DNA from: a virus
Taxonomy: Duplodnaviria; Heunggongvirae; Uroviricota; Caudoviricetes
Length of the DNA: 64,000 nt
IMG/VR virus record: IMGVR_UViG_3300048598_000131
Strand: one strand, 5' to 3'
A program made the translations under genes and the position numbers. This document shows, piece after piece, positions 41,099-61,955 of the stretch. How positions within the stretch are numbered: the stretch's first letter is position 1; every line of letters starts with the position of its first letter. The notes below the pieces were generated by a model, which saw nothing but the letters and a program-made list of their open reading frames with translations, was not told the DNA's origin and did no database searches.

Positions 41099-43495
41099 TT
41101 GATGTTTGCGAGTAATGCCTACTATCAGTACGTTGATGCACACGGGCGCCTAATCTTTGTATCTGGCGGAAGTCTCATAGACAAAGGGGATTGGACGGCC
41201 TTGTCAGATTATGCGTACGGAAATGTAGTAGCTTACTCAGATAATCTTTATGTTGCTTTAGGGACAATTAGTGCACCTGGATCAACACCGGCGGCTTTAA
41301 CCTACGGTTACACAGATAATCCACTGTGGGCTGAGCTAACGTTAAAGATGGTGAGTGTTCCATCCACAGGTGGAACTACGGTTACACCGCCTACTACAGC
41401 TGTTAGTAGCTTAGATACGGGAGCTGTCTATCAGATTGTAAATGGCTATGGAATATCGAAGTACATATCTGGTAGTAATGTAACACTAAAGGGACCTTGG
41501 GACACTACGGTATCTTACATTGTAAATGACGCTGTAATTTACAACGGTGTTATTCTTGTGTGCGTAGTTCCTGTATCTCCTCCACAGACTTATCCTTATT
41601 TAGGCGTCTATGGCACAGGTAACTTTACTTATTGGTCTTATCTTACATTGACTAGCTACACTAGCTCGTCAGTGCTAGTAACCGGGTACACTGCTTATCA
41701 GAGCCAAGTTGTACTAGGTGGTCCTACTGGTCCAACAGGCTATACAGGCTACACAGGTTCATCTGGTGATCAGGGTTCGACGGGTTTTACCGGCTATACA
41801 GGATATACGGGTCCATTGGGATTCACAGGTTACACAGGCTATACTGGACCTTTTGGCTTGGGTGACACAGGATATACAGGATACACTGGAACTACGGGAC
41901 CTCAGGGCATACCTGGAATTCAAGGCTCAACCGGTTATACAGGTTACACAGGACCACAAGGTCAAGATTCTACAGTAACGGGTTATACGGGATTTACAGG
42001 CTACACGGGTTCTCCAGGAACTAATGGAATTCAAGGTTCAACCGGTTATACAGGGTACACCGGTCCTACTGGACCTGGAAATTTTACAGGTTACACTGGC
42101 TATACAGGCGTTTCTGGATCACAGGGATCCACAGGTTACACAGGATTTACAGGTCCACAGGGAAACCAAGGTAATCAAGGTTTAATCGGTTACACTGGAT
42201 TTACAGGATATACTGGAAGTCAAGGTGGAGTAGGCAGCACAGGCTACACTGGCTATCAAGGTCCTACAGGATACACTGGTTATACTGGTCCACAAGGTAT
42301 TCAGGGTGTAACAGGGTATACCGGCTACACAGGATATACCGGAAGAACGGGTTACACAGGGTACACCGGACCTACAGGCGTTACAGGATACACAGGGTAC
42401 ACTGGACCGTCTGGAAGTAACGGTAGTCAAGGGACTACCGGTTATACAGGTTACACTGGAAATCAAGGATCCACGGGCTATACAGGATATACTGGTCCAA
42501 CAGGAACTGCTTCGAATGTAACGGGTTACACTGGATATACCGGTCCGCAGGGATCATCCTATACGGGTTACACAGGATATACTGGTGGATTAGGGAGCAC
42601 AGGACAGACCGGTTACACCGGTTATACTGGCCCGGCAGGACTAGCATCCACTGTAACTGGATACACTGGCTATACGGGACCTTCAGGCAGCAATGGAAGT
42701 CAGGGCACTACCGGTTATACGGGATATTCAGGTTCATCAGGCACTACGGGATATACAGGCTACACCGGTCCTTCAGGAAGTAACGGTAGTCAAGGTTCAA
42801 CAGGCTACACAGGTTACACAGGACCTGCTGTAACAGGCTATACCGGTTTTACAGGTCCAGCTTCTACAGTAACAGGATATACTGGCTACACGGGATATAC
42901 CGGTAGGACAGGTTATACAGGATACACTGGTCCACAAGGACAAACAGGATATACGGGTTATACTGGTCCAACGGGTGCTGCTTCTACTATTACAGGATAC
43001 ACTGGATACACGGGCTACACAGGTTCGTCTGGAGCTGCATCTACGATTACTGGTTATACAGGTTACACTGGGCCTTCAGGTAGTAACGGAAGCCAGGGCA
43101 ACACAGGATATACGGGTTATACAGGATACGCGTCAACAGTTACGGGTTATACCGGTTACACAGGCCCACAAGGATTAGCCTCTACAATAACAGGGTATAC
43201 CGGTTATACCGGTTCTCAAGGTGGCATAGGTTCTACGGGATATACAGGTTACACAGGTTCATCTGGTAATACTGGTTCATCCGGTTCAACTGGTTACACA
43301 GGGTACACAGGATATACAGGACCACAAGGGATAGCTTCCACCATAACTGGATACACAGGATACACCGGAATATCAGGTTCAACTGGCTATACTGGCTATA
43401 CAGGTCCTCAGGGTCCAACCGGTCCAAGCGGCTCAGGCGGATCAGGCGACGTAACAGCAGCCTATGTGGCTGCGATTGCAATTGCACTAGGATAA
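41099..43495 (+). CDS. collagen-like triple-helix-repeat protein (Gly-Tyr-Thr triplets), fibre protein 1
   Basis: About 200-aa N-terminal non-repeat domain (..[16 protein letters not shown]..). Then about 600 aa of uninterrupted G-X-Y triplets, dominated by [20 protein letters not shown]. Confidence 0.75.
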
Positions 43496-43499
43496 ATCT

Positions 43500-44627
43500 A
43501 TGAATTACGACGGAGCTACTGGCTACACAGGTTATACAGGTTACACTGGCCCTTCAGGAGGACCGGCAGGACCTCGCGGAGTAGACGGTCCAACAGGTTA
43601 CACTGGCTACACAGGTCCACAAGGCGCTACAGGTCCAGGTTATACGGGGCCTCAAGGAGCCATGGGGCTAAAAGGCACTACGGGCTATACGGGCTATACT
43701 GGTGCATCTGGCTCGGACGGCAGAAGCTATACAGGTCCTCAAGGCGTCCAAGGAGGGACTGGCTATACAGGTTATACAGGATACACTGGATCAACTGGAT
43801 CAACAGGTCCAGGCTATACAGGTCCACAGGGACCAGCCGGATTAAAAGGAAGCACTGGTTACACTGGCTATACCGGCGCAGCAGGCAGAGATGGTGCTAG
43901 CTATACAGGTTACACAGGACCTCAAGGCCTAAGGGGATTTACAGGCTATACGGGTTACACTGGAGTAGGCGGCGTCACCGGTTACACAGGCTACACAGGT
44001 CCAATGGGAATTATGGGGAGTAGAGGATACACTGGCCCTCAGGGCGATACCGGCTACACCGGTTATACTGGCTATACTGGAAGTAGAGGGCTGTCCGTGA
44101 CTGGCTACACTGGCTATACAGGTCCTAGTGGCACAGTAGGCACGACAGGCTCACAAGGCACTACGGGCTATACCGGCTACACAGGTTCAGCCTCTACAGT
44201 CACTGGCTATACGGGTTACACAGGCCCGCAGGGCATAATAGGCAAGGGTGGTAGTCAAGGTCCTGTCGGTTATACTGGATACACTGGTTATACCGGCCAA
44301 TCTGGTGACATGGGTCCACGTGGATTTACAGGATATACCGGTTACACTGGTCCTAAGGGACCAGCAGGTGGTGGAATACGCGGTGTAAGCGGCGTTATTG
44401 ATTTGGACACGTCTTCTGTATCGGGCAGCTTCAGCGTAGCCGTTGATTTTAGCACATTAACGTCTGTAGTGCTTACAGTAGCACGGCCACATGGATCTTC
44501 GGTTATTTATGCCAATCTGGATAGCTCTGCCACGTATTATAGTAATGGTTCTATCGTCGTAGGCTACGATCTAAGCGCACTTCCAGCAACAGATGCCTAT
44601 CGTCTGCATTATGTGATTTTAGCTTAA
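43500..44627 (+). CDS. collagen-like triple-helix-repeat protein, fibre protein 2
   Basis: G-X-Y triplets for about 290 aa. The C-terminal roughly 85-aa non-collagen domain is [12 protein letters not shown]...YRLHYVILA. Starts 4 nt after the previous collagen-like gene. Confidence 0.75.
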
Positions 44628-44638
44628 TTAAAGACAAA

Positions 44639-44673
44639 TGTTAACGTGCGTCTAGTTCTAGCACACGTTAACA
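44639..44673. promoter_or_regulatory. inverted repeat TGTTAACGTG-N15-CACGTTAACA
   Basis: 10-bp perfect arms at 44639-44648 and 44664-44673. Lies directly after the collagen-like gene 2 stop. No T-run follows. Confidence 0.3.
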
Positions 44674-44729
44674 ATATACAGGAGTTTAACACTTGAATTT
44701 GTTTAAGTCAGTATAGAACTATTTAAACT

Positions 44730-44972
44730 ATGACAATTTCTGCTAGTTTAGTCTACCGTGCTGTTAATGGAGACGATACGGCACATAATCAACTTGTAGC
44801 TTTTATTTCTGAAAATATAGCTAATGGCTTTAATTTTGATGATTTAGTCGTTGAAGCTGCGGATTGTGAAGCTAGTCAAGTACCAACAGACTATCAATTA
44901 GATTGCTATCAGCAGAGGCTAATAAAAGACGTAGCGCATCATTTCATTGAGCACAAACTTGTAATTAAATAA
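44730..44972 (+). CDS. hypothetical protein
   Basis: 80-aa ORF. Confidence 0.45.
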   Translation: MTISASLVYRAVNGDDTAHNQLVAFISENIANGFNFDDLVVEAADCEASQVPTDYQLDCYQQRLIKDVAHHFIEHKLVIK

Positions 44973-45349
44973 TGCTGCGATACAAGGACATACACATTAC
45001 TGCTGTAGGCGACGGATTTGTTGTAGCTAGATACGTTGTAGATGGACACAGTAGACATTTAGTTTACTGGAATAACGATAATGCGCAGTGGTTGTCTAGC
45101 TGTGCAAAACCGATGTCGTACGCGTTAGCTAATACTCTACAGCATAAGCTGGCTGATGCAGAGCTACAAGAACTATACACTTATGATTCAGTAGCATATC
45201 TAAGATCAGTTAATCCTATATTAGGACTGCGATTAGTTCTTAAAAAACTAATTTCTAAGCACAAGCTAGCAGGCTATTCTGCGCGCTGTTTTAGATATAA
45301 GCTGTCCAAGTGTAGGCTTAAAATTGCGAAAGCATTATGCGAACACTAG
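44972..45349 (+). CDS. hypothetical protein
   Basis: 125-aa ORF. Confidence 0.45.
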   Translation: MLRYKDIHITAVGDGFVVARYVVDGHSRHLVYWNNDNAQWLSSCAKPMSYALANTLQHKLADAELQELYTYDSVAYLRSVNPILGLRLVLKKLISKHKLAGYSARCFRYKLSKCRLKIAKALCEH

Positions 45350-45864
45350 CTAAAATTTATTCAGATATAGTAAAAGAATTTCCTTATCATTCAGATAAGG
45401 GTAGTAGTCACAGTTATATATCAGTATACGATAGTTTATTTGATAGCATCAAAGACAATAAGATGCGCGTACTAGAGATAGGTGTTGAGTACGGAACATC
45501 TTTGATAATGTGGGCTCGCTATTTTAAAAATTCGGAAGTTGTAGGCCTAGACATCAATACGGCTAATGTAAAATACGATGTTAGTCCGGCTAAGCTTATT
45601 CAGGGTAATTCACTAGATAAAAGCCTTAATTTAGGCATGTTTGATCTTATAATTGATGATGGGGGCCACGATGTAGAAACGCAGGCTAATACGATTTTGA
45701 ATATGCGTGATAGGCTATATCCTGGCGGGCATTATGTGATAGAGGACATCTTTGTTGAGAATGTTAAAAGTTTAAGTAACCTATTAGGTAAAAATACGTG
45801 TGTATACGATTTACGTGCACTAAAATATAGAGCTGATGACATAGTAATATGTTCTGTAAAGTAA
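45337..45864 (+). CDS. class I SAM-dependent methyltransferase (sugar/macrolide O-methyltransferase-like)
   Basis: DKGSSHSY..YD.LF......VLEIGVEYGTSLIMWARYF....VVGLDI.......G....IIDDGGHD is a Rossmann SAM-binding pattern. Confidence 0.6.
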   Translation: MRTLAKIYSDIVKEFPYHSDKGSSHSYISVYDSLFDSIKDNKMRVLEIGVEYGTSLIMWARYFKNSEVVGLDINTANVKYDVSPAKLIQGNSLDKSLNLGMFDLIIDDGGHDVETQANTILNMRDRLYPGGHYVIEDIFVENVKSLSNLLGKNTCVYDLRALKYRADDIVICSVK

Positions 45865-45879
45865 ACAAAATAAGATTAT

Positions 45880-46482
45880 ATGGATGATACAACAGCTACA
45901 ACTCCAAGTACAACGGTAACTAGTACTGACACAGCTACTACAGTTACAACTCCTAGCACTGATACAGTAACTCCTAGCACGAGCACTGTTACTGATACAG
46001 TAACTCCTAGCACAAGCACTGATACAATAAGCACAACAACTACAGCTCCAACTACAGCTCCAAGTACAACTCCAAGTACAACATCAAGCACAACGGTGTC
46101 GAATACAAGTGTGGATACGACGACTACAGCTACAAGTACGGATACTGTAACTCCTAGCACAACGGCTACCACAACAACTACCACAACAACTACTACGCCT
46201 ACGCAAGTTACAGCTTATGCAGTGAGTAACGGGGACGACATTCCAAGCGTGCTGTTTACGGATAAGCAAGTAGCTGATCATCTTAATCTAAGTAGAGGAA
46301 TATCTTCAGAATACACAGTAAGCGTTGATCCTAACGACGATAGCATTGGCACGATTACAATTACGCGTAAAGTTGCGTTAGATAATACAGTAGCTAGTGA
46401 CTTTTTTAAAAGCAGTGCTTTGTCTAAGCTTACTACAGATGAAGTAACTGCGCTTAAGAGTGCTTGGAATGTTAAAAGCTAA
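45880..46482 (+). CDS. Thr/Ser/Pro-rich mucin-like low-complexity protein with C-terminal globular domain
   Basis: The first roughly 110 aa are almost only T/S/P/A/V/D (TTATTPSTTVTSTDTATTVTTPSTDTVTPSTSTV...). The C-terminal 90 aa are ordinary. Confidence 0.55.
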   Translation: MDDTTATTPSTTVTSTDTATTVTTPSTDTVTPSTSTVTDTVTPSTSTDTISTTTTAPTTAPSTTPSTTSSTTVSNTSVDTTTTATSTDTVTPSTTATTTTTTTTTTPTQVTAYAVSNGDDIPSVLFTDKQVADHLNLSRGISSEYTVSVDPNDDSIGTITITRKVALDNTVASDFFKSSALSKLTTDEVTALKSAWNVKS

Positions 46483-46885
46483 ATTTTTTGAATAGCCATT
46501 CAACGCTAACTTTAGCTACGGCTGTGATGGCTATTACAGCAAGGACTGCAATTATAGCCCATTTTCCGGTAAAATATTGCTTCCAATCCCATAAGGTGTT
46601 TAGCCTAGGACTTATAGACTCCGAGATATCTTTTTTAATTCCGTCTATGTCGCTATAGCGCAACTCAGTTTCCGCCAGTCGCTTTTCTGCCTCTGAAAAA
46701 CGTTTGCTGTGTTCGATTACGGTATTGAGCGTCCAATTCGACTGATTTTCCAGTTTACTCACAGCTTCCACGAGATAACGTTCATCATCTGGTAAATTTT
46801 TTATCAGATGACTTGGAATGCTGCTTTTAAACACTGGAATGGGCGAATCAACTGAATTGTCGCTTCCACAGCTCATGTCTTTCAT
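46472..46885 (-). CDS. hypothetical protein with C-terminal transmembrane anchor
   Basis: 137 aa on the minus strand. The C-terminus reads WAIIAVLAVIAITAVAKV. Confidence 0.5.
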   Translation of the reverse strand: MKDMSCGSDNSVDSPIPVFKSSIPSHLIKNLPDDERYLVEAVSKLENQSNWTLNTVIEHSKRFSEAEKRLAETELRYSDIDGIKKDISESISPRLNTLWDWKQYFTGKWAIIAVLAVIAITAVAKVSVEWLFKKFSF

Positions 46886-47115
46886 TTCAACATTAAATAC
46901 AGTTTAACATCAACAGTGCTAAGATATAGCACTCATTTAGTTCTAACAGGCTAGGGCAGTCAAAAAGTGCGTACACGAATACTATTAGCTATAATGATTA
47001 CACTAATATTAATACTGAATACATCGCAAGTGCTGCTACGCTAGACGCTGTAGATAAAGTGCCCAAAATTACATAAAATGTGCTAGTCGTATTTAAGACT
47101 TAAATGTAGTTAACT

Positions 47116-47376
47116 ATGAAGCGAGTGATCATATTAGTTTCGTTGGTTGTGCTAATGAGCCTATTTGGATGTGCAGCAGGAAAAAATAGGGTATATCCTG
47201 TAGTTGGCTTTGGATGGATATCTGTTGCAACAAATACTGAGGATTTGTCTGTAATAAAAACAACTCTTATAGGGCCTGGAATAAATATGAGATCACAGTC
47301 AGTAGTTGTTGGTTACGAACAGTCTGTGATAGTAAAAGCAAAGACAAATGCTGATAACATAATTGAGGTAAAATGA
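47116..47376 (+). CDS. putative lipoprotein
   Basis: Signal peptide plus lipobox: MKRVIILVSLVVLMSLFGC. Confidence 0.55.
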   Translation: MKRVIILVSLVVLMSLFGCAAGKNRVYPVVGFGWISVATNTEDLSVIKTTLIGPGINMRSQSVVVGYEQSVIVKAKTNADNIIEVK

Positions 47377-47765
47377 GAAATATTTACGTTGCTTTAGCCG
47401 CTATATGCTTAATCTGTGGGTGCAAAGCGCCGACATCGAGCACAATTGTTTTTACGACAACAGTGCTAGGTTTTGAAGTAGCTCAGAATCCAGTCAGTCA
47501 GATGTATCAGGCAAGATTGGGCTATGTTAGAGCAGAAGCTGCTTACACTCCATCGACTAATTCTGATTTGATAACTGAAATGAGATGGAATTCTATTTTT
47601 ACGACTGGAGGGCTTTATCAGCGCATGGCCATCGGCAAGACGGCTGTTGATAATTCAATGTACATGTTCGTAAAAGACGATAACGGAAAAATAGATACGA
47701 ATACGGTAACAAAGCTGATATCGATAGGTGAAGCTAAAATCAAAGCAGCGAATACAAATCGGTAG
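47373..47765 (+). CDS. putative lipoprotein
   Basis: MRNIYVALAAICLICGC has a lipobox-like cysteine. The start overlaps the upstream stop (ATGA). Confidence 0.55.
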   Translation: MRNIYVALAAICLICGCKAPTSSTIVFTTTVLGFEVAQNPVSQMYQARLGYVRAEAAYTPSTNSDLITEMRWNSIFTTGGLYQRMAIGKTAVDNSMYMFVKDDNGKIDTNTVTKLISIGEAKIKAANTNR

Positions 47766-47770
47766 AATTT

Positions 47771-48823
47771 ATGGCGTGGAATTCGGCGCTTAACTATGTC
47801 TATTTTGATAAGAGTTTAAAAACGTATTCAGTATATGGATATTCTTTAAACTTTAAAGGCACGTGGATACTGTCTACTCTCTATTCTAAACTTGATGTAG
47901 TAAGCGTAGGCACAGACCTGTACGTAGCCTTGTGCGCTAATCAAGGTATAAAGCCTAGTGGCACTGTTAGCACGCAGTGGTCAGCACTGATACAGGTAAA
48001 TAATACGTTGTCAGGCTCTGGAGGTTCTACAGGCTATACTGGACCTGCGGGTGCAGATGGAAGCATAGGGCCAACTGGATATACGGGTTACACAGGGCCT
48101 AAGGGAGATTCTGCTGATTTAGGCCCTGATGTCATAAATTGCAGTAATATCAACTGGGGTAACGGGACTGATCAGGTAAATTCTCAACAGATGCCCTACG
48201 CGAATAGTGGCTATCCTAGTTTAATCACTGTTGCTGCTGCGCTAGACCATTTGCTTTATGTACCGCTGGTAATAAATGCCTTCACTAATACGGTTAATGT
48301 GGTCGAAATTGGAGCGACTGTAAGCTCAGTTCAACTAGATTGGGTATATAACAAAAGTGTAACAAGCCAACATCTAAGCGTAGGTCCGTCTTCTTTAGAT
48401 GTGAGTCTTAGAGATTACACAGATAGTTCGTCATATACATCAAATAAAACATATACACTGTATGCTTCTGACGGAACAACGAGTCTAACGGCATCTACTT
48501 CTTTAATTTTTAGACCGAGAAATTATTATGGTCAAAGCGCGTCTAGCACGTTAAATAATTCAGGCGTACTTGCTTTAGCTTCAAATCCATTAGCTTCTGG
48601 AAAGGGCTTGAGTCTTAGCAACTATGTCATATCTAGCGCTTATATGTGGTTTTGTTATCCAGCTGGCTATGGCACGGCAAATTTTACGGTTAATGGATTA
48701 GCCAATACTGCTTGGACACTTACTACACTATCGCTTACAAATGCGTCTGGTTATACACAGAACTATTACTGTTATAGATCAAACAACGTGTTAAACGGAA
48801 CATATAGTTTTACATTATCTTAG
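47771..48823 (+). CDS. short collagen-like protein with C-terminal globular domain, fibre protein 3
   Basis: The N-terminal domain (..[17 protein letters not shown]..) resembles the N-terminus of 41099..43495. It has about 15 G-X-Y triplets ([28 protein letters not shown]), then a 230-aa non-repeat domain. Confidence 0.65.
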
Positions 48824-48827
48824 CAAT

Positions 48828-51800
48828 ATGCCTACCATACCAGGTACAGTAGTAGCAGCAGCAATAACAACGGGTGATACCAATCTTTTATTTTCAATTG
48901 GTGATACAAATGAAATGCAGGGAGGCCATCATTCAGTAGCAGCAGATACTGATAGAGACAATATACCTAGCGCGAGACGAACAGAAGGTATGAGCTGCTG
49001 GGTACAGACGAGCCAGAAACTTTATAGGCTTGTAGGTGGTATAGACAATTCTAATTGGACTGAAGTTACCGTAGCTCCAACCGGTTATACTGGTTACACT
49101 GGTCCTCAAGGTCCTGGAGGAGAAGATGGAGGCCCAACAGGATACACAGGGTACACTGGACCTACAGGAGTTACCGGTTATACCGGTTACACTGGGCCGC
49201 AGGGAAATGCATCAACAGTTACGGGCTATACCGGTTACACTGGTTCATCAGGTAGTCAAGGCAGCACTGGATTTACTGGTTTTACCGGGTACACCGGATA
49301 TCAAGGGATTCAGGGATCAACTGGCTACACTGGATTTACAGGACCACAAGGAATACAAGGAGTTACAGGATATACTGGCTACACCGGTTATACTGGAAGA
49401 ACTGGATATACAGGATATACTGGAAATCAAGGTTCAACCGGCTACACTGGTTATACTGGTCCATCAGGCGCGCAAGGGACTACAGGGTATACCGGTTATA
49501 GCGGTCAAACAGGCTATACGGGTTACACCGGACCGCAAGGAAGTCAAGGGAGTACCGGCTATACAGGATTTACAGGACCTATCGGAGCTGCATCAACTGT
49601 AACAGGGTATACGGGATACACTGGTTATACGGGAAGAACGGGATACACCGGTTACACTGGTTCACAAGGAATTCAAGGTGCTACTGGTTATACAGGATTT
49701 ACAGGACCACAGGGAGTGCAAGGCGTAACGGGTTATACGGGATACACAGGTAGTCAGGGTGCCCAAGGCAGTGCTGGATTAGCAGGCGATACAGGATATA
49801 CCGGATATACAGGTTATACAGGACCTCAAGGAATTACAGGATACTCGGGTTCTCCAGGTCCAACAGGCTACACTGGCTATAGTGGTCAAGGCTATTTAGC
49901 CCATAGCTATTCAGCGCTTACGCTTACACTAGGCTCAGTGGCCTATGCAACAGCAGAAACTAATTTAGCTTATGCCGTAAGTGATAGAGTGCAGTTAACA
50001 TGTACCAGCGATCCTGCTGTATGGATGGCTGGATTTATTACAAATTATGACGGTGTAAATTCGTACGTAATAAATGTAGACCTGCTTAATGGTAGTGGAT
50101 CATATACAAGTTGGTCAGTAAGCTTGACAGGTAGGCTAGGAGCAACCGGTTATACAGGCTATACCGGAGCACAAGGAATTCAAGGTGCTACCGGCTACAC
50201 AGGCTATCAAGGTCCTACAGGTTATACCGGATTTACCGGTCCACAAGGTATTCAGGGTGTAACAGGTTACACAGGATATACTGGTAGAACAGGATATACG
50301 GGTTATACTGGTCCGCAAGGACAAACAGGATATACGGGTTATACTGGTCCACAAGGAAGCCAAGGTTCTACAGGTTATACAGGTTATACAGGATTTACGG
50401 GCTATACGGGTTACACGGGGCCTTCAGGCAGCAATGGAAGTCAAGGCTCAACTGGTTACACCGGGTACACAGGAGCTGCATCAACAGTTACGGGGTACAC
50501 CGGCTACACAGGTGCTGCGTCTACTGTAACAGGCTACACAGGTTATACCGGTCCTGTAGGTGCTGCATCAACTGTAACAGGGTATACAGGATACACTGGT
50601 TCTACTGGTCAAACAGGATACACAGGCTACACTGGTCGAACAGGATATACGGGCTACACTGGATCTCAGGGAATTCAAGGATTTACGGGTTATACAGGAT
50701 ACACTGGTCCAGCAGGTAGCAACGGTAGTCAAGGTAATACTGGTTACACAGGGTACACTGGCTATACAGGTCCTGTTGGTGCTCCATCAACTGTGACAGG
50801 TTATACTGGTTATACAGGATCTTCTGTAACAGGCTATACCGGATACACCGGTCCTCAAGGGCCGCAAGGACCGGGTGGAGAGAGCGGAGGCCCTACAGGA
50901 TATACAGGATATACAGGAGTAACGGGCTACACAGGGTACACAGGCTATACGGGACCTCAAGGACTAACAGGCTATGCAGGTTCAGCTGGTCCGACTGGCT
51001 ACACAGGGTATACAGGTTCAGGCTATTTGGCTTACAGCTATTCTGCGCTTACCGTCACTCTAGGATCAGTTGCTTATGCTACAGTTGAATCGGGCTTGGC
51101 TTACAGTATAGGGGATAGAGTTCAGCTTACTTATACAAGTGACTATAATATATGGATGTCAGGTACGATAACCGGATTTGATGGCGTAAATTCGTACGTG
51201 ATAAATGTGGATGCCACAAGCGGCAGTGGCTCATATATAAGTTGGTCAGTAGGTTTAGCTGGTAGAATTGGTTTTACTGGCTATACTGGACCTCAGGGAA
51301 TTCAAGGCTCTACAGGCTATACTGGTTACACAGGCAGTCAAGGCAATACCGGCTATACAGGATATACAGGACCTCAGGGTATCACAGGATACACTGGATA
51401 TACAGGTCCTGCTTCTACAGTAACAGGCTACACAGGATATACTGGTAGAACGGGATACACGGGATATACGGGTGGAACTGGTTATACCGGTTATACAGGT
51501 TACACAGGACCTGTTGGTAGCGCTTCTACGGTTACTGGCTACACAGGATTTACAGGTTATACCGGTCCGCAGGGTATTCAAGGAACTACAGGGTACACAG
51601 GGTACACCGGTTACACAGGGCCTGCTTCAACTGTTACAGGTTACACAGGTTACACTGGACGAACAGGATATACAGGTTACACAGGCCCACAGGGCACTAC
51701 TGGATATACAGGTTACACTGGACCTGCTGGATCTGCGTCTACAATTACAGGCTATACCGGTTACACTGGATATACTGGTCCTAGCGGCGTAACAGGCTAT

Positions 51801-54800
51801 ACAGGTTTTCAAGGAACTACAGGCTATACAGGTTACACAGGCTACACAGGTCCCGCTGGATTACAGGGGCCTACTGGCTATAATGGGGATCAGGGACCTA
51901 CGGGCTACACTGGTTACACCGGTTCAGGCTATTTAGCGTCAACTACTTCAACCCTTACAATTACAACCGGATCTGTAGCTTTTTCTACACTTAATAGCGG
52001 ATTAGCCTACGAAATCGGAGATAGAATACAGGTAACATCCACGAGTAGCTCTGATTTATGGATGTCTGGATATATAACAGGATTTGATGGTGTTAATCTA
52101 TACACATTTAATGCTGATACTTGCAACGGTGCAGGATCTTACAGTAGTTGGTCAGTGAGCCTAGCAGGAAAACCTGGCTCTACTGGTTATACAGGCTATA
52201 CAGGTCCACAAGGAAATCAAGGAACTATAGGATTTACTGGCTATACTGGATACACTGGAGTAACAGGTTACACAGGTTACACAGGTCCGCAGGGAAATGC
52301 ATCTACTGTAACAGGATACACAGGATATACAGGCAGAACTGGCTATACAGGTTATACCGGTCCGCAGGGAGCAACCGGTTACACCGGATTTACTGGTCCT
52401 CAAGGAATTCAAGGTGTAACTGGTTATACAGGTTATACAGGTTCACAAGGTATTACGGGCTACACAGGCTACACCGGAGCTGCGTCTACGGTTACGGGTT
52501 ATACAGGATATCAAGGAATTCAAGGTAGTACAGGATATACAGGCTACACTGGATCACAAGGCAATACGGGTTATACTGGCTATACGGGTCCTACTGGTGC
52601 AGCGTCTACTATTACAGGTTATACAGGTTTTACTGGCTATACTGGTCCACAAGGGAATCAAGGTGTCACAGGCTACACAGGATTTACAGGTCCAGCTGGT
52701 GCTGCATCAACTGTTACTGGTTACACAGGCTATACCGGTTACACAGGTCCAACAGGATTGGCTTCTACAGTAACAGGCTACACTGGCTATACAGGGAGAA
52801 CTGGCTATACAGGTTACACTGGATCAAATGGTGCTACAGGTTATACAGGCTACACAGGTTCAGCCTCTACAGTTACTGGCTATACTGGCTACACAGGATA
52901 TACTGGTCCACAGGGATTAGCCTCTACTGTTACAGGTTACACTGGCTACACAGGACCGCAAGGGAATCAAGGTGTCACAGGCTACACAGGATATACGGGT
53001 TACACTGGACCATCTGGCGCCGCATCTACTGTTACGGGCTACACTGGATACACGGGCTACACTGGTTCGCAAGGAATTCAAGGTCCTACAGGCTATACAG
53101 GATTTACAGGCCCTACTGGTTCAGCATCTACTGTTACTGGATACACAGGATATACTGGCTACACAGGATATCAAGGGGTCACAGGATATACGGGCTACAC
53201 CGGTCCTTCAAGAGGCAACAATATTGTTGTAGCCCTTCCAGCTAATGTCGGTGATTATACAGAAATAGGAAATTGGCTAAAGGCGAACGGACCACACAGT
53301 CTTATTTTAACAGCTACTTTATCAGATTTAGGCATGTCGGTGTCTCAGACATATCTGATAAATACAAGGTTTAATCTTACCTCTGGAACGTGGTATCGGC
53401 TAGTTCCGTCTAATATAAACACGCAACCAGAGATAACTTTCGACATAGATTTAAGTCAGACAAATAGCTATCTATACTTAAGAATACGAAAAACAAATGG
53501 TACATCAGCTAGTAATGTAAATATATACATACTAAACACAGGATACGCTGATGACGCTTTTACACAGACATATGGAACAGGTAGCACAACTGTTCCGACT
53601 AATAGTCTTACATGCGGCGTAGGACCTACAGGATATACGGGTTATACTGGGCCTGCTTTAAGCAGAATGTTTGATTTAGGACTGTTGCCCGCTGCTACTG
53701 CTAATTATGCACGTTATTATAGATTTGCTACGTTGCCTGTTAGCAGTGCAAGTACTTTTGATACACTGTGGTTGCACATGACTACAGGGGGCTGGATATC
53801 TGCTTCAAAAACTTATATTGATTTTAAGTGCGGTAATAGAGGCGGGTTTTACTACACATGGAATTACACAGGTTCATCGCCTAGAACAGGCAGCTATAAT
53901 AGTTTACAGGCTTACATAGAATCTACAGGAGCAGTTACGCTATACGTGACGGTAGCGGCTAATTCATACAGCTGTAGCGGAGTTTCAGTCATAAACAGCG
54001 AAGGTGCTTCAGTTGAAACTAGCTTCGTATACTTGGGAGATAATGTCACGCCTACAGGCACTCTAGCCTTTGATAGCGCAACATATTCAGTGTATGATAC
54101 TGAAGGCTCCGTGACGTCGAATATGCTGGGTGATACCCACTGGGTTCCAGGGACTGTAGGATCGCAAGGAACGTATAAATATTATAATGCTTACGGCACT
54201 GGTTCAAATAACAGTGTGTCTGTGATACAGGGGCCACATACTGAAGACATTGTGGCATGGCATGCTCCAGCGACAGGTCAGTCTACCTATGATGGTGGAT
54301 TTGATACGCCTTACATGACGATAGACAATAATAAGGCGTATAGATATACATGCTGGGTAAGTGTTGCAAATGATAACACAAATGGTGCTTATATCTATTT
54401 TGGACATAATGCTGGCTCTCTTTTAAACTTAGATGGTTCCACTCAGGTTTCTCCGAATTTTACTTATGTACCTCCTTCAGCGCTTACTTTAGGCAGATGG
54501 TACTTGATGGTTGGATATATATGGCCTAATGCCACAAGTAGAACTGCATCATCTAATCTTGGCGGTATATACGACGGAGTAACTGGTGCACAGATAGCTA
54601 ATGGAACTGATTTTAAGTGGGCATCTACGTCAGTTACTGCGTCATTAGTTACCACGGCTTTAGCGTCCACGACAGCTGTTGGAGACTTTTACTGGTGTGA
54701 ACCAGCTATAGAAGAGCTAAGCGGCAAAGAAAGACCGCTTAGTACCATACTTGGGTTAAAATCGGCTGTGAGCACGGTAGTTTCAGTTGTACTTCCTACC

Positions 54801-57011
54801 AGTAGCGTAAACAGCTATACTGAAATTGGAAATTGGTCTATTCCGAGTGGTGGACACACACTGCTAGTGACTATTACAGCGTCTTACACGGGATTTTCAA
54901 CTTCTCAGACGTATTCTATAAATACTAGCTATAACTATACAGGCGGCGTGTGGTATAGATTAGTACCGGCAGGCGTAGCCTCTTACTGTTTTGATCTGGA
55001 TATGAGCCAGACAAACAATGGGCTTTATCTTCGAATTAGAAATATATACGGAACACTAACCGCAGGTTCTGCCACGGTTTACATGCTGAACCTTGGTTTG
55101 GCAAATGATATCTTTACGCAGACATACGGCACGGGAACGACTACTGCGCCTGCCTCTAGCATAAATAGTGGTTTAGGCCCTACAGGATATACTGGCTACA
55201 CTGGACCTCAGGGAGTTATCGGCTACACCGGCTACACCGGTCCACAGGGAGTTACGGGCTACACTGGATTTACAGGACCTACGGGTGTTACGGGTTACAC
55301 TGGATACACAGGTTATACCGGTCCTCAGGGAAATGTAGGTTATCAAGGTGCGCAGGGTAATCCTGGTGCTACAGGTTATACCGGCTACACTGGCCCAACT
55401 GGAGTAACAGGTTATACAGGTTACACAGGTTACACAGGAGGAACTGGCTACACAGGTTATACAGGCTACCAGGGAGTTACGGGCTATACCGGTTACACTG
55501 GTCCATCAGGTATTACTAAGGTATCTGTTGCACTTCCAGTTAATTTAAATGATTACACAGAAATCGGTAACTGGGTTATTGGCAACGGTCCACATAGCTT
55601 ATTTATATCCATTACAGTGGCTGGGTCTGGCATATCAATATCTCAGACATACACGATAAATACCTATTACAATTATACTCTAGGCACATGGTGCAAAGTA
55701 GTACCGGCGAATATCGCAGATTATCAGTATGAAAAGTATGATTTAGACATATGTCAGACAAATAATACGCTTTATCTGCGAATTAGAAACACCTACGGGA
55801 GTTTTACCGGCTATGCCAATGTTTACATGCTAAACCTTGGTTATGCAAATGATGTTTTTACACAGACATACGGCACAGGTAATACAACAGCGCCTACGTC
55901 TGTTTTAAGCGGAGGCTTAGGTCCAACTGGTTATACAGGTTACACAGGGCCTTCAGGTAGTAACGGAAGCCAAGGCTCAACAGGTTATACCGGTTACACA
56001 GGTCCAGCCGGAAGTAATGGTAGCCAAGGAAGCACGGGTTACACAGGGTATACAGGTCCTGCTGGAATTACTGGTTCAAATGGAAGTAATGGTAGTACGG
56101 GATATACGGGATATACTGGTTATACCGGACCTGCTTCTACGGTAACAGGATACACAGGTTACACAGGATATACAGGTAGAACAGGATATACAGGTTATAC
56201 TGGCCCACAGGGAGTTACAGGATATACAGGATATACTGGTCCATCCGGCGCTGCATCTACGGTAACAGGCTACACAGGTTATACCGGTAAAGGCTACTAT
56301 GCAACGAGTGCGTCAACGCTTACGCTTACCACCGGTTCTGTGGCGTTTACGACTAGTCAGTCTAATCTGGCGTATGCTGTAGGTTCGAGAGTAAGACTTA
56401 CCTATAATAGCAGCAATTGGATGGAGGGCTATTTAACTGCTTATGATGGCGCATCCCTGTTTACTGTTAGCGTTGATAGCGTAAAAGGCAGTGGAACATA
56501 TAACGCGTGGACGTGTAACATGAGCGGTGAATACGGTGCTACTGGTTATACCGGCTACACTGGTCCTACTCCATCATCCTACGTTGCGCGCATAATTGCC
56601 GGTACAAACGTTACAATTGATCCAACTACCGGTACTGGCACTGTTACAATAAGCGTGTCGTCATCGTCTGATTTGCGCGTTAAGAAAAATATAAGACCGT
56701 TTACTGACGGCTTGAGCGTTTTGGAAAAATTACCCATAGTTCAATGGGAATTTAATGGTGCAGGAAATACAGTCGACGGCAAACACGGAATGGGTATCAT
56801 AGCCCAAGAAGTCGTCGATAAAATACCTTATTGTATCGGAACACGTAAAGGAAAACTACATCCAGATGATAAGGATGAAACTGATATATATACTGTTTGC
56901 AATGCTGATCTTGTTTGGGTTCTCGTTGTTGCTTACCAAGAGCTGTTAAAGTCTCACAGGCTGCTTGAGGAACGCGTGGCTAAGCTTGAGACTACTAGCG
57001 CTAAATATTAG
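48828..57011 (+). CDS. giant modular collagen-like tail-fibre/tail-spike protein (2727 aa) with C-terminal peptidase-S74 intramolecular-chaperone domain
   Basis: Long GYTGYTG.. collagen-like stretches alternate with repeated globular modules. Module A is about 85 aa ([19 protein letters not shown]...W..G.IT.(F/Y)DG(V/A)N.Y) in 4 copies at about nt 49890, 51021, 51927 and 56292. Module B is about 140 aa ([13 protein letters not shown]......H.L.......G.S.SQTY.INT.(F/Y)N....G.W(Y/C).(L/V)VP......LYLRIR...G......[17 protein letters not shown]) in 3 copies at about nt 53213, 54775 and 55514. A unique roughly 370-aa domain sits at about 53650-54770. The C-terminus [14 protein letters not shown]...GIIAQEV matches the SD.R.K.NI start of the endosialidase/T5-pb1-type auto-cleaving chaperone. 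Confidence 0.8.
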
Positions 57012-57022
57012 TTCTAATTCAG

Positions 57023-61003: not shown

Positions 61004-61021
61004 TCATCTTGACGCCAGCAT

Positions 61022-61486
61022 TCAGTTGCTGGCGTCTTTTTGTACAGCTTGGCCAGATTTGTCTACGTGTGATAGCATTGATCCAAGTAAAGGCACGCGG
61101 TCTTCAACGCGCTTTAGGAGCCATTTGTGCGCTAGCCACGCGCCAGCGCCTATGATTGCTCCTAGAAGTATGTTTCGCCCTAGCCAGACTCTGAAGCTTG
61201 TATGCGCAGGTATGTCTGAAATTAGCGGGGTAAAGGTCATGCCCCACAGGATACACGCTAGCGGTATGCCGTTATTTGGGAAGTTTTTAGCTAATCTCAG
61301 TGCATAGCCAAAAATTATGCAAGTTATGCCCACAAGCAGACTAGAGGGTAGTCCGTACAGCGAATTGAGCAGCTGTATGAAACTATCTGAAAAGCTGTTG
61401 TCTACGTCATAGAGGCTCGGAACGTTTGTGTCTCCATAGGCGCAAAACGCACTCGTCACTAAGCATAAACAAATGCAGTATTTCAT
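61022..61486 (-). CDS. hypothetical secreted/membrane protein
   Basis: 154 aa with an N-terminal signal-like segment MKYCICLCLVTSAFCAYG. Three more hydrophobic segments follow. Confidence 0.5.
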   Translation of the reverse strand: MKYCICLCLVTSAFCAYGDTNVPSLYDVDNSFSDSFIQLLNSLYGLPSSLLVGITCIIFGYALRLAKNFPNNGIPLACILWGMTFTPLISDIPAHTSFRVWLGRNILLGAIIGAGAWLAHKWLLKRVEDRVPLLGSMLSHVDKSGQAVQKDASN

Positions 61487-61489
61487 AAT

Positions 61490-61939
61490 TTAACTACGCC
61501 AGTTATGCTCAGGGCAAGCTTCTGTTTTTAGCTTGGCCTTGCTGAATACAATACATCTGCATATTTGGCATTGAAACCAACGATAGTTTTTGCATGCTTT
61601 GCACGCTGTAATTCTATCGGTATATTCAGTGTCTGACACTAGTGGATAGCCTGCTTCTTTCCAGAGCTTAACAGCTTCGAATAAGTGTTTAAAGACATCA
61701 GACCAGGCTAATGGTTCTATTTCTTTGCTATTTTTAGCCCCGCAGCACCTTTTAATTTTTGTATTTTCGGTTTTATTAGCTGCGATCGGCATGTAACCAA
61801 CAGCCTGTATTCCTGGAAATTTTTTAAGCGGACAACCTAATGTATTTTGCAGTGAATGTCCGAGCATGCAAACACCTTTCCAATTTGCGCAATTAGTACA
61901 AATGGCTTTGCGTGCATAAAATATTTTAGAGTCAATCAT
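61490..61939 (-). CDS. hypothetical Cys-rich protein
   Basis: 149 aa with about 17 Cys, including CTNC...C, CKAC and CQIC pairs. Confidence 0.5.
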   Translation of the reverse strand: MIDSKIFYARKAICTNCANWKGVCMLGHSLQNTLGCPLKKFPGIQAVGYMPIAANKTENTKIKRCCGAKNSKEIEPLAWSDVFKHLFEAVKLWKEAGYPLVSDTEYTDRITACKACKNYRWFQCQICRCIVFSKAKLKTEACPEHNWRS

Positions 61940-61955
61940 CTCAAGTAGTTACGAT

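Follow-up and report, generated by a model that had tools for sequence, protein, structure and literature searches.

The fibre gene cluster

The window analysed here, one stretch of 64,000 nucleotides, comes from an uncultured freshwater phage, and the region described below is a fibre gene cluster of a tailed phage. The initial annotation placed four collagen-like fibre genes in it, at coordinates that proved exact: open reading frames (ORFs) at 41099-43495 (798 aa), 43500-44627 (375 aa), 47771-48823 (350 aa), and 48828-57011 (2727 aa). Three of these encode strong Gly-X-Y (GXY) proteins, but the third ORF (47771-48823) contains just 11 triplets. The features upstream of the largest gene are the following:

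41099..43495, + strand: fibre protein A, 798 aa (Pfam Collagen, E=2.8e-64)
43500..44627, + strand: fibre protein B, 375 aa (Pfam Collagen, E=1.7e-32)
45337..45864, + strand: Methyltransf_24-like small class-I SAM methyltransferase between fibre genes (Pfam, E=6.8e-8; PHROG methyltransferase, E=7e-16)
45880..46482, + strand: mucin-like protein, 200 aa (translation; internal DNA repeat family D15)
47771..48823, + strand: protein C, 350 aa (GXY count; homology to Tunturi_5 gp28)

Fibre protein A probably begins with the ATG at 41102. Its residues 1-207 carry two CBM_5_12-like repeats (27.2 bits, Pfam cut-off 26.2); a GXY region of about 525 residues comes next, and the C-terminus is short and hydrophobic. 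Fibre protein B consists of 282 GXY residues and a globular C-terminal domain of about 85 aa that matched no Pfam family. Protein C combines a CBM5/12-like N-terminal motif, its 11 triplets, and a C-terminal domain of about 230 aa; it probably serves the giant fibre protein D, encoded by the next gene, as partner or adaptor. The first ~105 residues of the 45880-46482 product are nearly all Thr, Ser, or Pro, and this protein is a possible further O-glycosylation substrate. The fibre genes lie ~13 kb away from the sole recognisable tail gene, a tape-measure-like ORF (25301-28159), and their neighbours are non-structural.

Architecture of the giant fibre protein D

The gene for protein D is divided along its length as follows:

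48828..49082, + strand: N-terminal domain, aa 1-85 (tblastn matches to phage fibre N-termini)
49083..53210, + strand: four long (GYT)n collagen blocks with modules A1-A3 (GXY runs, module alignment, ST[VI]T interruptions)
53214..53621, + strand: module B1, aa 1463-1598, beta-sandwich (AlphaFold2, pLDDT 88.5)
53658..54782, + strand: unique region U, aa 1611-1985, ~375 aa (model, Foldseek, cluster matches)
54786..56570, + strand: B2, collagen, B3, collagen, A4, and a short GXY stretch (GXY runs, module alignment)
56667..57011, + strand: Peptidase_S74 intramolecular chaperone, aa 2614-2727 (Pfam 39.9 bits, motif)

Protein D is built of six collagen blocks split by small beta-modules, plus a CBM-like beta-sandwich. 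The first four blocks (aa 86-355, 435-732, 809-1034, and 1114-1461) are separated by A1 (aa 355-434), A2 (732-808), and A3 (1034-1113), and beyond U follow B2 (1987-2116), collagen (2117-2230), B3 (2231-2361), collagen (2362-2489), A4 (2490-2567), and the short GXY stretch. The modular build recognised earlier, with four copies of A, three of B, and one unique region, agrees with both counts and alignment; identity among copies is 48-74% for A and 54-63% for B.

Structure prediction, which the initial annotation had called for in module B and the unique domain, returned CBM-like and phage-fibre-like folds. The B1 model matched predicted phage tail-fibre/depolymerase proteins in BFVD (best E=5e-6, TM 0.67) and had no significant match in the PDB. 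The C-terminal ~200 residues of U (about 54183-54716) were modelled as a CBM-like jelly-roll (pLDDT 82.8), with Foldseek matches to CBM4/CBM22, agarase CBM, and MAM domains (E 7e-6 to 5e-4). In addition, 819 cluster representatives match U at E<=1e-3, and weak matches connect it to a Vibrio jumbo-phage 'virion structural protein'. The earlier suggestion that this ~370-aa domain binds a receptor is plausible in view of the model, and its C-terminal half is a putative receptor-binding domain.

The Gly-X-Y repeats

Counted in runs of four or more, strict triplets number 175 in A, 94 in B, 11 in C, and 434 in D, and Gly does recur at every third residue over long stretches, the longest uninterrupted runs spanning 41-47 triplets. 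The "12 kb of G-X-Y" first reported corresponds to the summed lengths of the four genes, whereas strict GXY amounts to 714 triplets, or ~6.4 kb. The description of X as mostly Tyr and Y as mostly Thr is borne out by the counts (202/434 and 289/434 triplets in D, respectively), yet a Thr-filled Y position, regarded as atypical at first, is typical of prokaryotic and viral collagens (PMC11923368). The Pfam Collagen model also matches D (E=1.7e-151), with protein C remaining under the threshold (19.9 vs 27.2).

The underlying DNA repeats had been called near-identical and thus a substrate for recombination or length variation. Their copies are just 60-78% identical, with 30 of the 32 synonymous GGN-TAY-ACN versions in use. 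The copies are codon-scrambled, exact repeats reach no more than 36 nt, and the DNA repeats are poor recombination substrates; the fibre gene of a relative is 100% identical across three independent assemblies.

Aromatic residues in X disfavour the collagen triple helix, and host-guest peptide studies place Tyr among the least favourable residues at this position. The repeats are nearly uncharged, Pro is scarce (~6% of repeat residues), KGE/KGD salt-bridge triplets are absent from them, and interruptions of a stereotyped ST[VI]T type (e.g., ...ASTVTG...) are frequent. Such features could suit another glycine-periodic fold, such as the polyglycine-II bundles that occur in some phage adhesins, or a disordered, glycosylated mucin-like brush. 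We consider either very unlikely, given the unbroken runs of Gly at every third residue, the strong Collagen matches, the presence of a trimerising S74 chaperone, the modules of trimeric-fibre type that flank the repeats, and the acceptance of Thr-rich, Pro-poor bacterial collagens as triple helices (PMC11923368; PMC3368898). A triple-helical shaft is the interpretation retained below.

A C-terminal intramolecular chaperone

The C-terminus of D had been read as a self-cleaving S74 chaperone, and this reading holds. Residues 2614-2664 match Peptidase_S74 well above the Pfam cut-off (39.9 bits vs 22), the sequence SDLRVKKNI begins at residue 2614 with the Ser2614/Lys2619 dyad kept, and the SDLRVK motif is invariant among relatives. 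The domain profile matches 6F45, the gp37 chaperone of phage S16 whose structure is solved (E=1.8e-5), and also MYRF 7DC3. Autocleavage of D is predicted before Ser2614, with Lys2619 as the partner residue.

S74 chaperones are known best from tail spikes and fibres. Those of K1F endosialidase, T5 pb1, and S16/T4-type gp37 resemble the domain of D in being C-terminal chaperones of ~114 aa, in the Ser-x4-Lys motif at the predicted cleavage site, and in the helical tail that ends the domain. However, their shafts are beta-helices or triple beta-helices where that of D is collagen-type, and D is far longer and has a dedicated glycosyltransferase gene next after it.

Relationship to phage fibres and site on the virion

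The C-terminal domain of protein C shares 34% identity with Tunturi_5 gp28 (E=5e-27). In this isolated jumbo myophage, gp28 lies directly upstream of gp29, a homologue of the D N-terminus, so that the C-D pair is syntenic with gp28/gp29; both are annotated 'tail fiber protein'. The N-terminus of D has tblastn matches to the N-termini of gp29 and of Bacillus phage G gp369 ('tail protein'), as well as to those of Pseudomonas phage Lu11 and Cellulophaga phage 'structural protein' genes, and it is the probable virion- or partner-attachment end. A common virion-attachment domain had also been proposed from an (N/D)LYVAL segment in A and C, but this segment is no evidence for one, because it is part of a CBM_5_12-like repeat that is found again at internal positions of a related jumbo-phage fibre.

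Other phage and prophage collagens, namely E. coli O157 EPclA-type proteins, mycobacteriophage 'collagen-like minor tail' proteins, and gp29 itself, likewise alternate GXY blocks with globular and CBM5/12-like modules (PMC3368898), and gp29 shares with D both the homologous N-terminal domain and a conserved adjacent partner gene. Protein D differs in its mostly Tyr X position (Ala or Pro in gp29), in its far larger collagen content of 434 strict triplets, and in its S74 end, stereotyped ST[VI]T interruptions, and linked multi-domain glycosyltransferase.

An origin of the window in a giant virus or in the genome of a cell, with the proteins as capsid fibrils or cell-surface collagens, is scarcely credible. 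Many IMG/VR matches to (GYT)5 do fall in contigs assigned to giant-virus MAGs, and 47 stretches of bacterial and archaeal genomes also contain the motif. Nevertheless, the genes here are small, densely packed, and on one strand, a 952-aa ORF is 41% identical to the tape-measure-position protein of Pseudanabaena phage Pam2, and a PHROG virion-protein match is present. Terminase or T4-type structural genes accompany the relatives and glycosyltransferase homologues on their contigs, and the Tunturi_5 synteny likewise speaks for a phage.

The initial reading of D as a "trimeric tail fibre" stands as regards collagen-like fibre proteins, while its "tail" element is less firm. A T4-like contig of 190 kb has the gene for a 606-aa Collagen+S74 protein directly upstream of its gp13, gp14, and gp15 homologues, a slot that we take to be the wac/fibritin (neck whisker) position in T4 gene order; attachment of the present fibres to the tail is therefore putative. 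They may instead sit on the neck or collar as whiskers, or on the head as fibres, comparable to fibritin or to the filaments on certain phage heads, and would then slow diffusion or establish a first, reversible contact. This is a possibility on the doubtful side: the cluster is not beside recognisable baseplate genes, and the predicted length of ~0.4 µm exceeds that of usual tail fibres (a 4689-aa relative would be clearly longer, by size alone), but the closest annotated homologues bear tail fiber or tail protein labels, albeit computational ones, the PHROG matches are tail-fibre families, and the S74 chaperone is best known as a feature of tail proteins. On balance, D is likely to be a trimeric, very long (~0.4 µm), O-glycosylated collagenous phage fibre, for which we infer attachment to the tail.

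A downstream glycosyltransferase polyprotein

A gene at 57023-61003, overlooked in the initial annotation, starts 12 nt past D and encodes a 1326-aa polyprotein (GT) that joins a TibC-like protein O-glycosyltransferase to GT2-TPR, methyltransferase, second GT2, and GT32 domains:

57023..58078, + strand: GT domain 1, TibC/AAH-like (BAHT-like), aa 1-352 (PDB TibC 4RAP, E=1.6e-31)
58136..61003, + strand: GT domains 2-6 (Pfam, NCBIfam, PDB TPR and GmaR matches, PHROG 13126)
61011..61036, + strand: terminator-like hairpin with a 10-bp stem, 7 G-C pairs, then a T-run

Domain 1 aligns end to end with TibC and keeps the catalytic Asp, three of the four sugar-binding residues (the Thr/Lys/Trp contacts), and all four iron-finger Cys. 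Unlike in TibC/AAH, the sugar-binding Arg286 is replaced (I259), the TIGR04414 equivalog score falls just under the cut-off (196.8 vs 200 bits), the domain is fused to five others, and an autotransporter substrate is absent. The remaining domains are GT2 (aa 372-~590), TPR (592-696), Methyltransf_24 (780-885), GT2 (~926-1120), and GT32/Caps_synth (1134-1229), and the GT2-TPR part matches the flagellin glycosyltransferase GmaR in the PDB. No membrane or secretion signal was evident when the sequence was read by eye. The terminator-like hairpin may close a C-D-GT transcription unit; no comparable + strand terminator was found between 57011 and 57023.

The conserved downstream enzyme gives strong contextual support to the earlier idea that the repeats are O-glycosylated, and GT probably O-glycosylates the fibre. 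For prokaryotic collagens rich in Thr, glycosylation of this residue is the accepted explanation (PMC11923368). The analogy drawn with BclA of the Bacillus exosporium is fair, although the defining GPT repeat is absent and no C1q-like C-terminal domain was detected with Pfam. Both are Thr-in-Y collagen-like filaments on a particle surface, with glycosyltransferase and methyltransferase genes close by, and work cited in PMC11923368 takes Thr glycosylation to stabilise or decorate the helix. They differ in the repeat (GYT here), in the viral context, in the TibC-like and GT2-TPR enzymes, and in that O-glycosylation is established for BclA Thr and proposed here. For virus-encoded glycosyltransferases, a role in modifying the virion surface has been proposed (Freeman et al. 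2023, cited in PMC12619734). As with mycobacteriophage capsid/tail-tube glycans and Mimivirus fibrils, viral glycosyltransferases adjoin structural genes, but the proposed target here is a collagen repeat fibre instead of capsid/tail-tube protein C-termini, and the enzyme families are different.

Linkage of fibre and enzyme, and a proposed model

Relatives whose GT is 59-62% identical keep the fibre-to-GT order, and at one locus (L004) the TibC-like part is a separate gene, a fusion/split pattern. A 42.8-kb phage contig encodes a CBM5/12-GYT collagen in which the AASTVTG interruptions are found again and, two genes downstream, a glycosyltransferase 43% identical to GT aa 348-749. Among the informative IMG/VR GT2-TPR loci, 4/5 have a GYT collagen ORF upstream within ~2.5 kb. 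A GT2-TPR homologue occurs in 8-10 of 120 viral (GYT)5 stretches (1.05 Mb in total).

It is unlikely, yet conceivable, that the fibres are real and GT acts elsewhere, its target being host envelope glycans, the DNA of the phage, or a different phage protein (e.g., the Thr/Ser/Pro-rich 45880-46482 product); envelope change would then mean superinfection exclusion or serotype conversion, and adjacency only shared late expression. The targets usually ascribed to phage glycosyltransferases are DNA or the host surface (PMC10202952; PMC12619734), and a mucin-like ORF lies within the cluster. Also counting against the fibre as target are the TibC acceptors, experimentally mapped solely to Ser, not Thr, in beta-helical autotransporters (PMC4358343), the sub-cut-off TIGR04414 score, the replaced Arg, a GT2-TPR locus (L066) that has replication genes beside it and no collagen neighbour, and the absence of GT from the stored stretch of most (GYT)5 loci. 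However, the family of domain 1 is known only as cytoplasmic protein O-glycosyltransferases, GT2-TPR resembles GmaR, no export signal is evident, and the tight gene order persists at identities as low as 59% as well as on unrelated viral contigs.

Ranked first among the explanations, though with moderate assurance, is a self-chaperoned trimeric collagen fibre of D that is O-glycosylated by the downstream GT. In this model, built from sequence, homology, and predicted structure, the C-terminal chaperone would register three D chains and nucleate folding, and the triple helix would zip from the C-terminus to the N-terminus, re-registered at every globular module. The chaperone would then cut itself off at Ser2614, leaving a homotrimeric fibre with ~370 nm of triple helix, held to the virion by the D N-terminal domain, probably through protein C, while the B-U-B region would bind a glycan on the host surface. 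Inside the infected cell, the GT polyprotein would O-glycosylate repeat Thr/Ser with what may be a methylated oligosaccharide, the ...ASTVTG... interruptions being possible further targets. These glycans would replace hydroxyproline and salt bridges in stabilising the Tyr-rich helix and may also shield the fibre. Beyond this phage, the pairing of a fibre with a large sugar-adding enzyme recurs in unrelated environmental viruses.

Collagen Repeats of the Fibre Cluster

The fibre cluster encodes three collagen proteins (A, B and D) and a fourth protein, C, that carries a short collagen linker. The initial annotation had listed all four as collagen-like genes, and the ORFs themselves lie exactly where it placed them:

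41099-43495: A, 798 aa, with a likely start at the ATG at 41102
43500-44627: B, 375 aa
47771-48823: C, 350 aa
48828-57011: D, the 2727-aa giant

Counted in runs of at least four, strict Gly-X-Y triplets number 175 in A, 94 in B, 11 in C and 434 in D, with longest runs of 47 triplets in A, 21 in B and 41 in D; run lengths of up to 47 triplets are far beyond chance. Glycine at every third residue over long stretches, as first described, is therefore a property of A, B and D but not of C, whose 11 triplets are all that it has. The Pfam Collagen family (PF01391) is matched above its gathering threshold by A (E = 2.8e-64), B (E = 1.7e-32) and D (E = 1.7e-151), while C stays below it (19.9 vs. 27.2 bits). 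The "about 12 kb" of G-X-Y sequence originally reported turned out to be the four gene lengths summed; strict GXY amounts to 714 triplets, or ~6.4 kb.

Tyr occupies X in 76 of the 175 strict triplets of A, 34 of the 94 of B and 202 of the 434 of D, and Thr occupies Y in 110, 48 and 289 of the same triplets; TGY heads the Yaa-Gly-Xaa triplets (274/714). Host-guest peptide studies rank Tyr among the residues that favour a triple helix least when placed in X. KGE triplets are absent, the sole KGD lies in the 11-triplet linker of C, and the charged residues among the 1302 collagen residues of D are 1 Lys, 11 Arg, 3 Asp and 3 Glu. An unfavourable residue in X, no KGE and near-absent charge thus leave the GYT repeat without both classical stabilisers, and low proline together with the absence of KGE and KGD from A, B and D calls the stability of any triple helix they form into question. 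KGE/KGD salt bridges have been proposed as a general collagen stabiliser (PMC11923368). A Thr-saturated Y position, taken at first to be atypical, proves normal for bacterial, archaeal and viral collagens: a survey of 58,002 collagen-like domains found TGA and TGP over-represented in these groups and ascribed this to Thr glycosylation (PMC11923368).

The repeats are punctuated by 25 stereotyped interruptions of the form ST(V/I)T-G; the GAASTVTG version is also present in the fibre of related contigs (L001-L003) and in the protein P0138. Half of the best 120 database matches to B carry at least 10 GYT triplets, and at least 120 stretches of IMG/VR, giant-virus bins included, contain (GYT)5, as do 47 stretches among 185,579 prokaryotic species genomes. 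The GYT repeat is unusual, yet not unique to the window. A literature search found no published description of it, and the peptide GYTGYTG matched only degenerate PCR primers. Many of the IMG/VR (GYT)5 matches (L068-L147) lie on GVMAG contigs, that is, in giant-virus metagenome bins; either giant viruses use GYT collagens too, or phage contigs were mis-binned.

At the DNA level, the repeats had been called near-identical and a substrate for recombination or length variation. The longest exact repeat in 16 kb is only 36 nt, of the 32 synonymous nonamers that GGN-TAY-ACN allows, 30 occur, and the repeat families are 60-78% identical, which speaks against near-identity. Nor is there length variation between three independent assemblies of a relative whose fibre has 4689 aa: across 3.3-8.3 kb of its gene they agree completely (100% identity). 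The repeats are codon-scrambled, and their DNA looks arranged against slippage, which leaves the recombination idea unsupported. Short ORFs within A and D (41718-41978, 49126-49602, 52148-52528 and others) are not to be counted as genes: they overlap the repeat genes in another frame or on the opposite strand and arise from the sequence periodicity; one artefactual overlapping frame even gives tblastn matches to the same frame in relatives.

Architecture of the Giant Fibre Protein

D contains six collagen blocks with 1302 residues of strict GXY in total, corresponding to a triple helix of ~370 nm when computed at 0.286 nm per residue. Module alignment bears out the modular build proposed for it, with four copies of module A, three of module B and one unique region:

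aa 1-85: N-terminal domain, matching the N-termini of annotated phage fibre/structural proteins
aa 355-434, 732-808, 1034-1113 and 2490-2567: module A, four copies, 48-74% identical
aa 1463-1598, 1987-2116 and 2231-2361: module B, three copies, 54-63% identical
aa 1611-1985: unique region U

The protein ends in an S74-type chaperone, as anticipated. Peptidase_S74 (PF13884) is matched at aa 2614-2664 of 2727 with 39.9 bits against a cut-off of 22, and the motif S2614-D-L-R-V-K2619 is intact and invariant in the relatives L001 and L004. Its Ser and Lys stand five residues apart, and we take them to be the catalytic dyad, as in endosialidase and T5 pb1. A profile of three orthologues matches the solved chaperone of phage S16 gp37 (6F45, E = 1.8e-5) and that of MYRF (7DC3, E = 8e-4), and a pattern scan of genome contigs with the chaperone alignment gave no confirmed relatives. 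Judged by these family matches, D is a member of both the Collagen and the Peptidase_S74 families.

Pfam has no match for module A, module B, U, the C-terminal domains of B and C, or the N-terminus of D; a weak match of module A to Gp18_dom_I (E = 0.002) fell under the threshold and was set aside. Module B, whose alignment proved too variable to serve as a search pattern, is predicted as a beta-sandwich (pLDDT 88.5). A fold search of the PDB with this model returned nothing significant (best E = 0.03), and its matches among predicted phage proteins carry tail-fibre or depolymerase annotations (best E = 5e-6, TM 0.67).

The C-terminal ~200 residues of U belong to a domain that is common but escapes Pfam: HMMER, run exhaustively, matched 819 cluster representatives at E ≤ 1e-3, and some carriers are T9SS-sorted bacterial proteins. 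A word-indexed search with the B1-U-B2 segment of D had given a single match, likely because the short GYT linker in the query filled the candidate list, and its count is thus no measure of rarity. The same segment found no match in a sequence search of the PDB and no confirmed relatives in a pattern scan of viral contigs. The U domain is modelled as a jelly-roll (pLDDT 82.8), with fold similarity to CBM4, CBM22, agarase CBMs and MAM domains (E 7e-6 to 5e-4; TM relative to the query 0.35-0.46). The receptor-binding function first suggested for the unique region thus finds a carbohydrate-binding-like fold in its C-terminal ~200 residues, and a putative glycan-binding, receptor-recognition role is a reasonable reading of that model.

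Attachment Candidates and Neighbouring Genes

An (N/D)LYVAL segment shared by the N-termini of A and C had been proposed as a common virion-attachment domain. The N-terminus of A carries two CBM_5_12-like repeats (PF02839, 27.2 vs. 26.2 bits, two stretches), and that of C, which has no Pfam match, is similar to it over 46 aa (39%, E = 2e-4), a real but weak similarity. The segment is part of the CBM_5_12-like repeat, and the same W..Y..D.V....Y.A-type repeat recurs many times, interleaved with collagen, within gp29 of the jumbo myophage Tunturi_5. Such reiteration marks it as a module rather than as evidence for virion attachment. A better candidate for attachment is the N-terminal domain of D, which matches the N-termini of Tunturi_5 gp29, Bacillus phage G gp369 ("tail protein"), Pseudomonas phage Lu11 and Cellulophaga phage "structural protein" genes.

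C and D appear to belong together. The C-terminal domain of C matches Tunturi_5 gp28 (E = 5e-27), and a C-like gene lies directly upstream of a D-like N-terminus both in Tunturi_5 and in a fecal phage contig, an order that argues for a conserved pair; in the window the two are 4 nt apart. They are probably an adaptor and its fibre, with the reservation that the gp28/gp29 labels are computational, the Tunturi_5 paper reporting no proteomics. Further small genes lie between B and C:

45337-45864 (+): small methyltransferase
45880-46482 (+): mucin-like 200-aa protein, Thr, Ser and Pro making up nearly all of its first ~105 residues, with the internal DNA repeat family D15
47116-47376 and 47373-47765 (+): two small ORFs directly upstream of C, with signal peptides and lipobox-like cysteines (LFGC, ICGC)

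The mucin-like product could be a further glycosylation substrate, and the last two products are likely phage lipoproteins.

Virus Type and Place of the Fibre on the Virion

The window is densely packed with small genes on the same strand and includes one tRNA-Arg(TCT) at 9887-9962, a ThyA gene and one PHROG virion-protein match. A 952-aa ORF at 25301-28159 (+) is 41% identical to Pam2_66 of Pseudanabaena phage Pam2, annotated as a "flagellar hook-length control protein" and placed behind minor tail genes, at the usual site of the tape measure. The window is best read as coming from a tailed phage. Outside the fibre cluster, this ORF is the only clear link to an isolated phage. A host in the Bacteroidota is hinted at by the T9SS-tagged carriers of the U domain, the Bacteroides and Cellulophaga phage matches and the lack of an obvious Shine-Dalgarno sequence before A.

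Other genes of the window merit mention. A 289-aa ORF at 12954-13823 (+) has a PCRF domain and a partial release factor 2 match (TIGR00020, E = 2.3e-34, far under cut-off), and by this match is a truncated RF2-like protein; in-frame stop recoding was not seen in the window's long ORFs. Tandem SPFH/Band-7 proteins (Pfam E = 1e-25; PHROG 200 "lipoprotein") are encoded at 30495-31532 and 31545-32471 (+).

Identification of D as a tail fibre was sound as to the fibre and less secure as to the tail. A virion fibre is well supported by homology to PHROG tail-fibre families, Tunturi_5 gp28/gp29, phage G gp369 and the module B fold, annotations that are themselves computational. The cluster lies ~13 kb from the 952-aa tail gene, amid non-structural genes, as do gp28/gp29 in Tunturi_5. 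On a 190-kb T4-like contig (L061, 10001-11821), a 606-aa Collagen+Peptidase_S74 protein with (GFT/GYT)GSQG repeats is encoded just upstream of gp13/gp14/gp15, which in T4 is the place of fibritin. Given this protein, the tail is only the most likely location, and we retain it as such. Glycosyltransferase and methyltransferase genes lie 3.5 kb upstream of the L061 protein.

A Multi-Domain Glycosyltransferase Downstream of the Fibre

Twelve nucleotides after D begins a 1326-aa glycosyltransferase ORF, hereafter the GT:

57023-61003 (+): the GT
aa 1-352: domain 1, TibC-like glycosyltransferase
aa 372-~590: domain 2, GT2
aa 592-696: domain 3, TPR
aa 780-885: domain 4, Methyltransf_24
aa ~926-1120: domain 5, second GT2
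aa 1134-1229: domain 6, GT32/Caps_synth

The only strong plus-strand terminator-like hairpin lies just past the GT (61011-61036) and none lies between D and the GT, an arrangement that makes C, D and the GT look co-transcribed. Two small ORFs on the minus strand (61022-61939) are conserved in relatives, all of which also keep, downstream of the GT, a 559-aa protein (61956-63635, +; 34-36% identity in L001, L002 and L004) whose zinc-finger domain is of the DnaJ type (CXXCXGXG).

Domain 1 matches TibC, the autotransporter heptosyltransferase of ETEC (PDB 4RAP), with E = 1.6e-31, and scores 196.8 bits against a cut-off of 200 over positions 10-372 of the 374 of TIGR04414; the alignment makes it a homologue of TibC/AAH that narrowly misses the equivalog cut-off. 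BAHT enzymes act in the cytoplasm, where they O-glycosylate repetitive protein substrates. The GT2-TPR part weakly matches GmaR (E = 1.9e-5), the flagellin O-GlcNAc transferase of Listeria. In TibC, the functional residues comprise the catalytic Asp110, the sugar-binding Thr226, Lys230, Arg286 and Trp305, and the iron-finger Cys339/342/358/370 (PMC4358343). Mapped onto the alignment, the catalytic residue corresponds to D94 of the GT; Thr226, Lys230 and Trp305 are kept as T208, K212 and W278, and all four cysteines as C313, C316, C330 and C338. Arg286 is replaced by Ile259, and the stereoselectivity position Pro300 by Ser273, as in AAH. No autotransporter is encoded near the GT, its neighbour being the collagen-like fibre. 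From these features the GT would work like a BAHT enzyme, but it is not to be filed as a bona fide one, since it lacks an autotransporter substrate, scores under the equivalog cut-off and has one sugar-binding residue changed. Among the papers listed by the literature search, none relevant joined TibC to phage.

Fibre-Glycosyltransferase Linkage in Other Viruses

Megablast of window positions 54000-62000 against INPHARED phages gave no match, and exact look-ups of C and the GT in the contig index yielded no entry. A protein identical to the GT (100%) is nevertheless listed on a 99,354-bp JGI contig, and orthologues with 62% identity occur on 15 contigs (L001-L003). In the latter, the preceding gene, across the same 12-nt gap, encodes the 4689-aa collagen of GYT type, which shares the chaperone and has modules resembling A, B and U. 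The fibre-to-GT order is also kept on a 153-kb ENA contig (L004), where the TibC-like part is a separate 364-aa ORF; a TAG ends this ORF, and 12 nt later an ATG opens the remainder of the GT without a change of frame (3588-3602), which may represent a genuine split, a sequencing error or readthrough. That the TibC-like part is fused in the window and separate in L004 argues for one pathway.

Loci outside this lineage repeat the arrangement in part. On a 42.8-kb phage contig, a CBM5/12-(GYT)n protein with the same GAASTVTG interruptions is followed by a Laminin_G_3 protein and then by a GT that shares 43% identity with aa 348-749 and 31% with aa 919-1141 of the window's enzyme. Six IMG/VR loci with the GT2-TPR segment were found; upstream sequence is present in five, and a GYT collagen ORF lies within ~2.5 kb upstream in four of these. 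Conversely, 8-10 of 120 viral (GYT)5 stretches (1.05 Mb in total) contain a GT2-TPR homologue, one also with a TibC-like domain. In L007 (13365-15306, +) and L008 (13365-14777, +), a long (G-S/T-S)n GXY ORF with a globular middle domain (97 + 80 triplets in L007) adjoins a cluster of three TibC/GT9-like proteins, two GT2s and a methyltransferase; the gene caller had put genes on the strand opposite this ORF. A collagen neighbour is absent at L066 and at more distant TibC-like GT clusters (L006). The association is not universal, yet it is far above chance for a family with a few hundred detectable members, by an informal, small-sample estimate.

Proposed Fibre Maturation and Its Implications

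Functional claims about this system rest on sequence, predicted folds and gene neighbourhood. On that basis, the chaperone would trimerise the chains and set their register, the helix would zip up from its C-terminal end, nucleating anew at modules A and B on the way to the N-terminus, and the chaperone would be released at Ser2614. The N-terminal domain of D would dock on the virion via C, and the B-U-B region would bind a host glycan. On Thr/Ser in the repeats or in the ASTVTG interruptions, the GT would assemble an oligosaccharide that may be methylated, and these glycans would stabilise and shield a helix devoid of hydroxyproline and salt bridges.

D would work like S74-matured phage fibres and, its glycosylation being putative, like a BclA-type glycosylated collagen filament. 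The analogy with BclA, drawn from the outset, extends to this manner of working and not to identity. BclA combines GPT repeats with a C1q/TNF-like C-terminal domain, whereas the window proteins have GYT repeats and no detected C1q-like domain, ending instead in the S74 chaperone (D), an 85-aa domain without a family match (B) or a hydrophobic tail (A).

Phage fibres of collagen type have been described before, as have S74 chaperones. What is new is the extreme length of a Tyr-rich, near charge-free, proline-poor helix and its conserved direct linkage to a protein-type glycosyltransferase gene. The coupling of GYT collagens with GT2-TPR/TibC-like glycosyltransferases recurs in environmental viruses and is apparently undescribed. 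A broader reading, to which we give somewhat less than an even chance, is that GYT collagen and a dedicated GT2-TPR enzyme form a self-contained collagen-maturation module of environmental viruses (phages, possibly giant viruses), in which O-glycosylation of the repeat replaces hydroxyproline and salt bridges as the helix stabiliser, with the GT2-TPR enzyme in this lineage also fused to a TibC-like one, and fibres of at least 0.4 µm thereby made possible. If true, the fibre of the 4689-aa relative would be substantially longer than 0.4 µm, collagen stabilisation would have a third, viral solution, and BAHT-like enzymes would gain their first non-autotransporter substrate class. Glycosylation of the repeats by the GT would explain how a stable triple helix arises from an unfavourable sequence without hydroxyproline or salt bridges, and would add receptor-binding fibres to the mycobacteriophage capsids as sites of virion glycosylation. 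It would also offer BAHT-like and GT2-TPR enzymes a simple repetitive substrate of use in glyco-engineering recombinant collagens. Such fibre glycosylation, if true, would bear on host recognition, protease resistance and the behaviour of particles in lakes.
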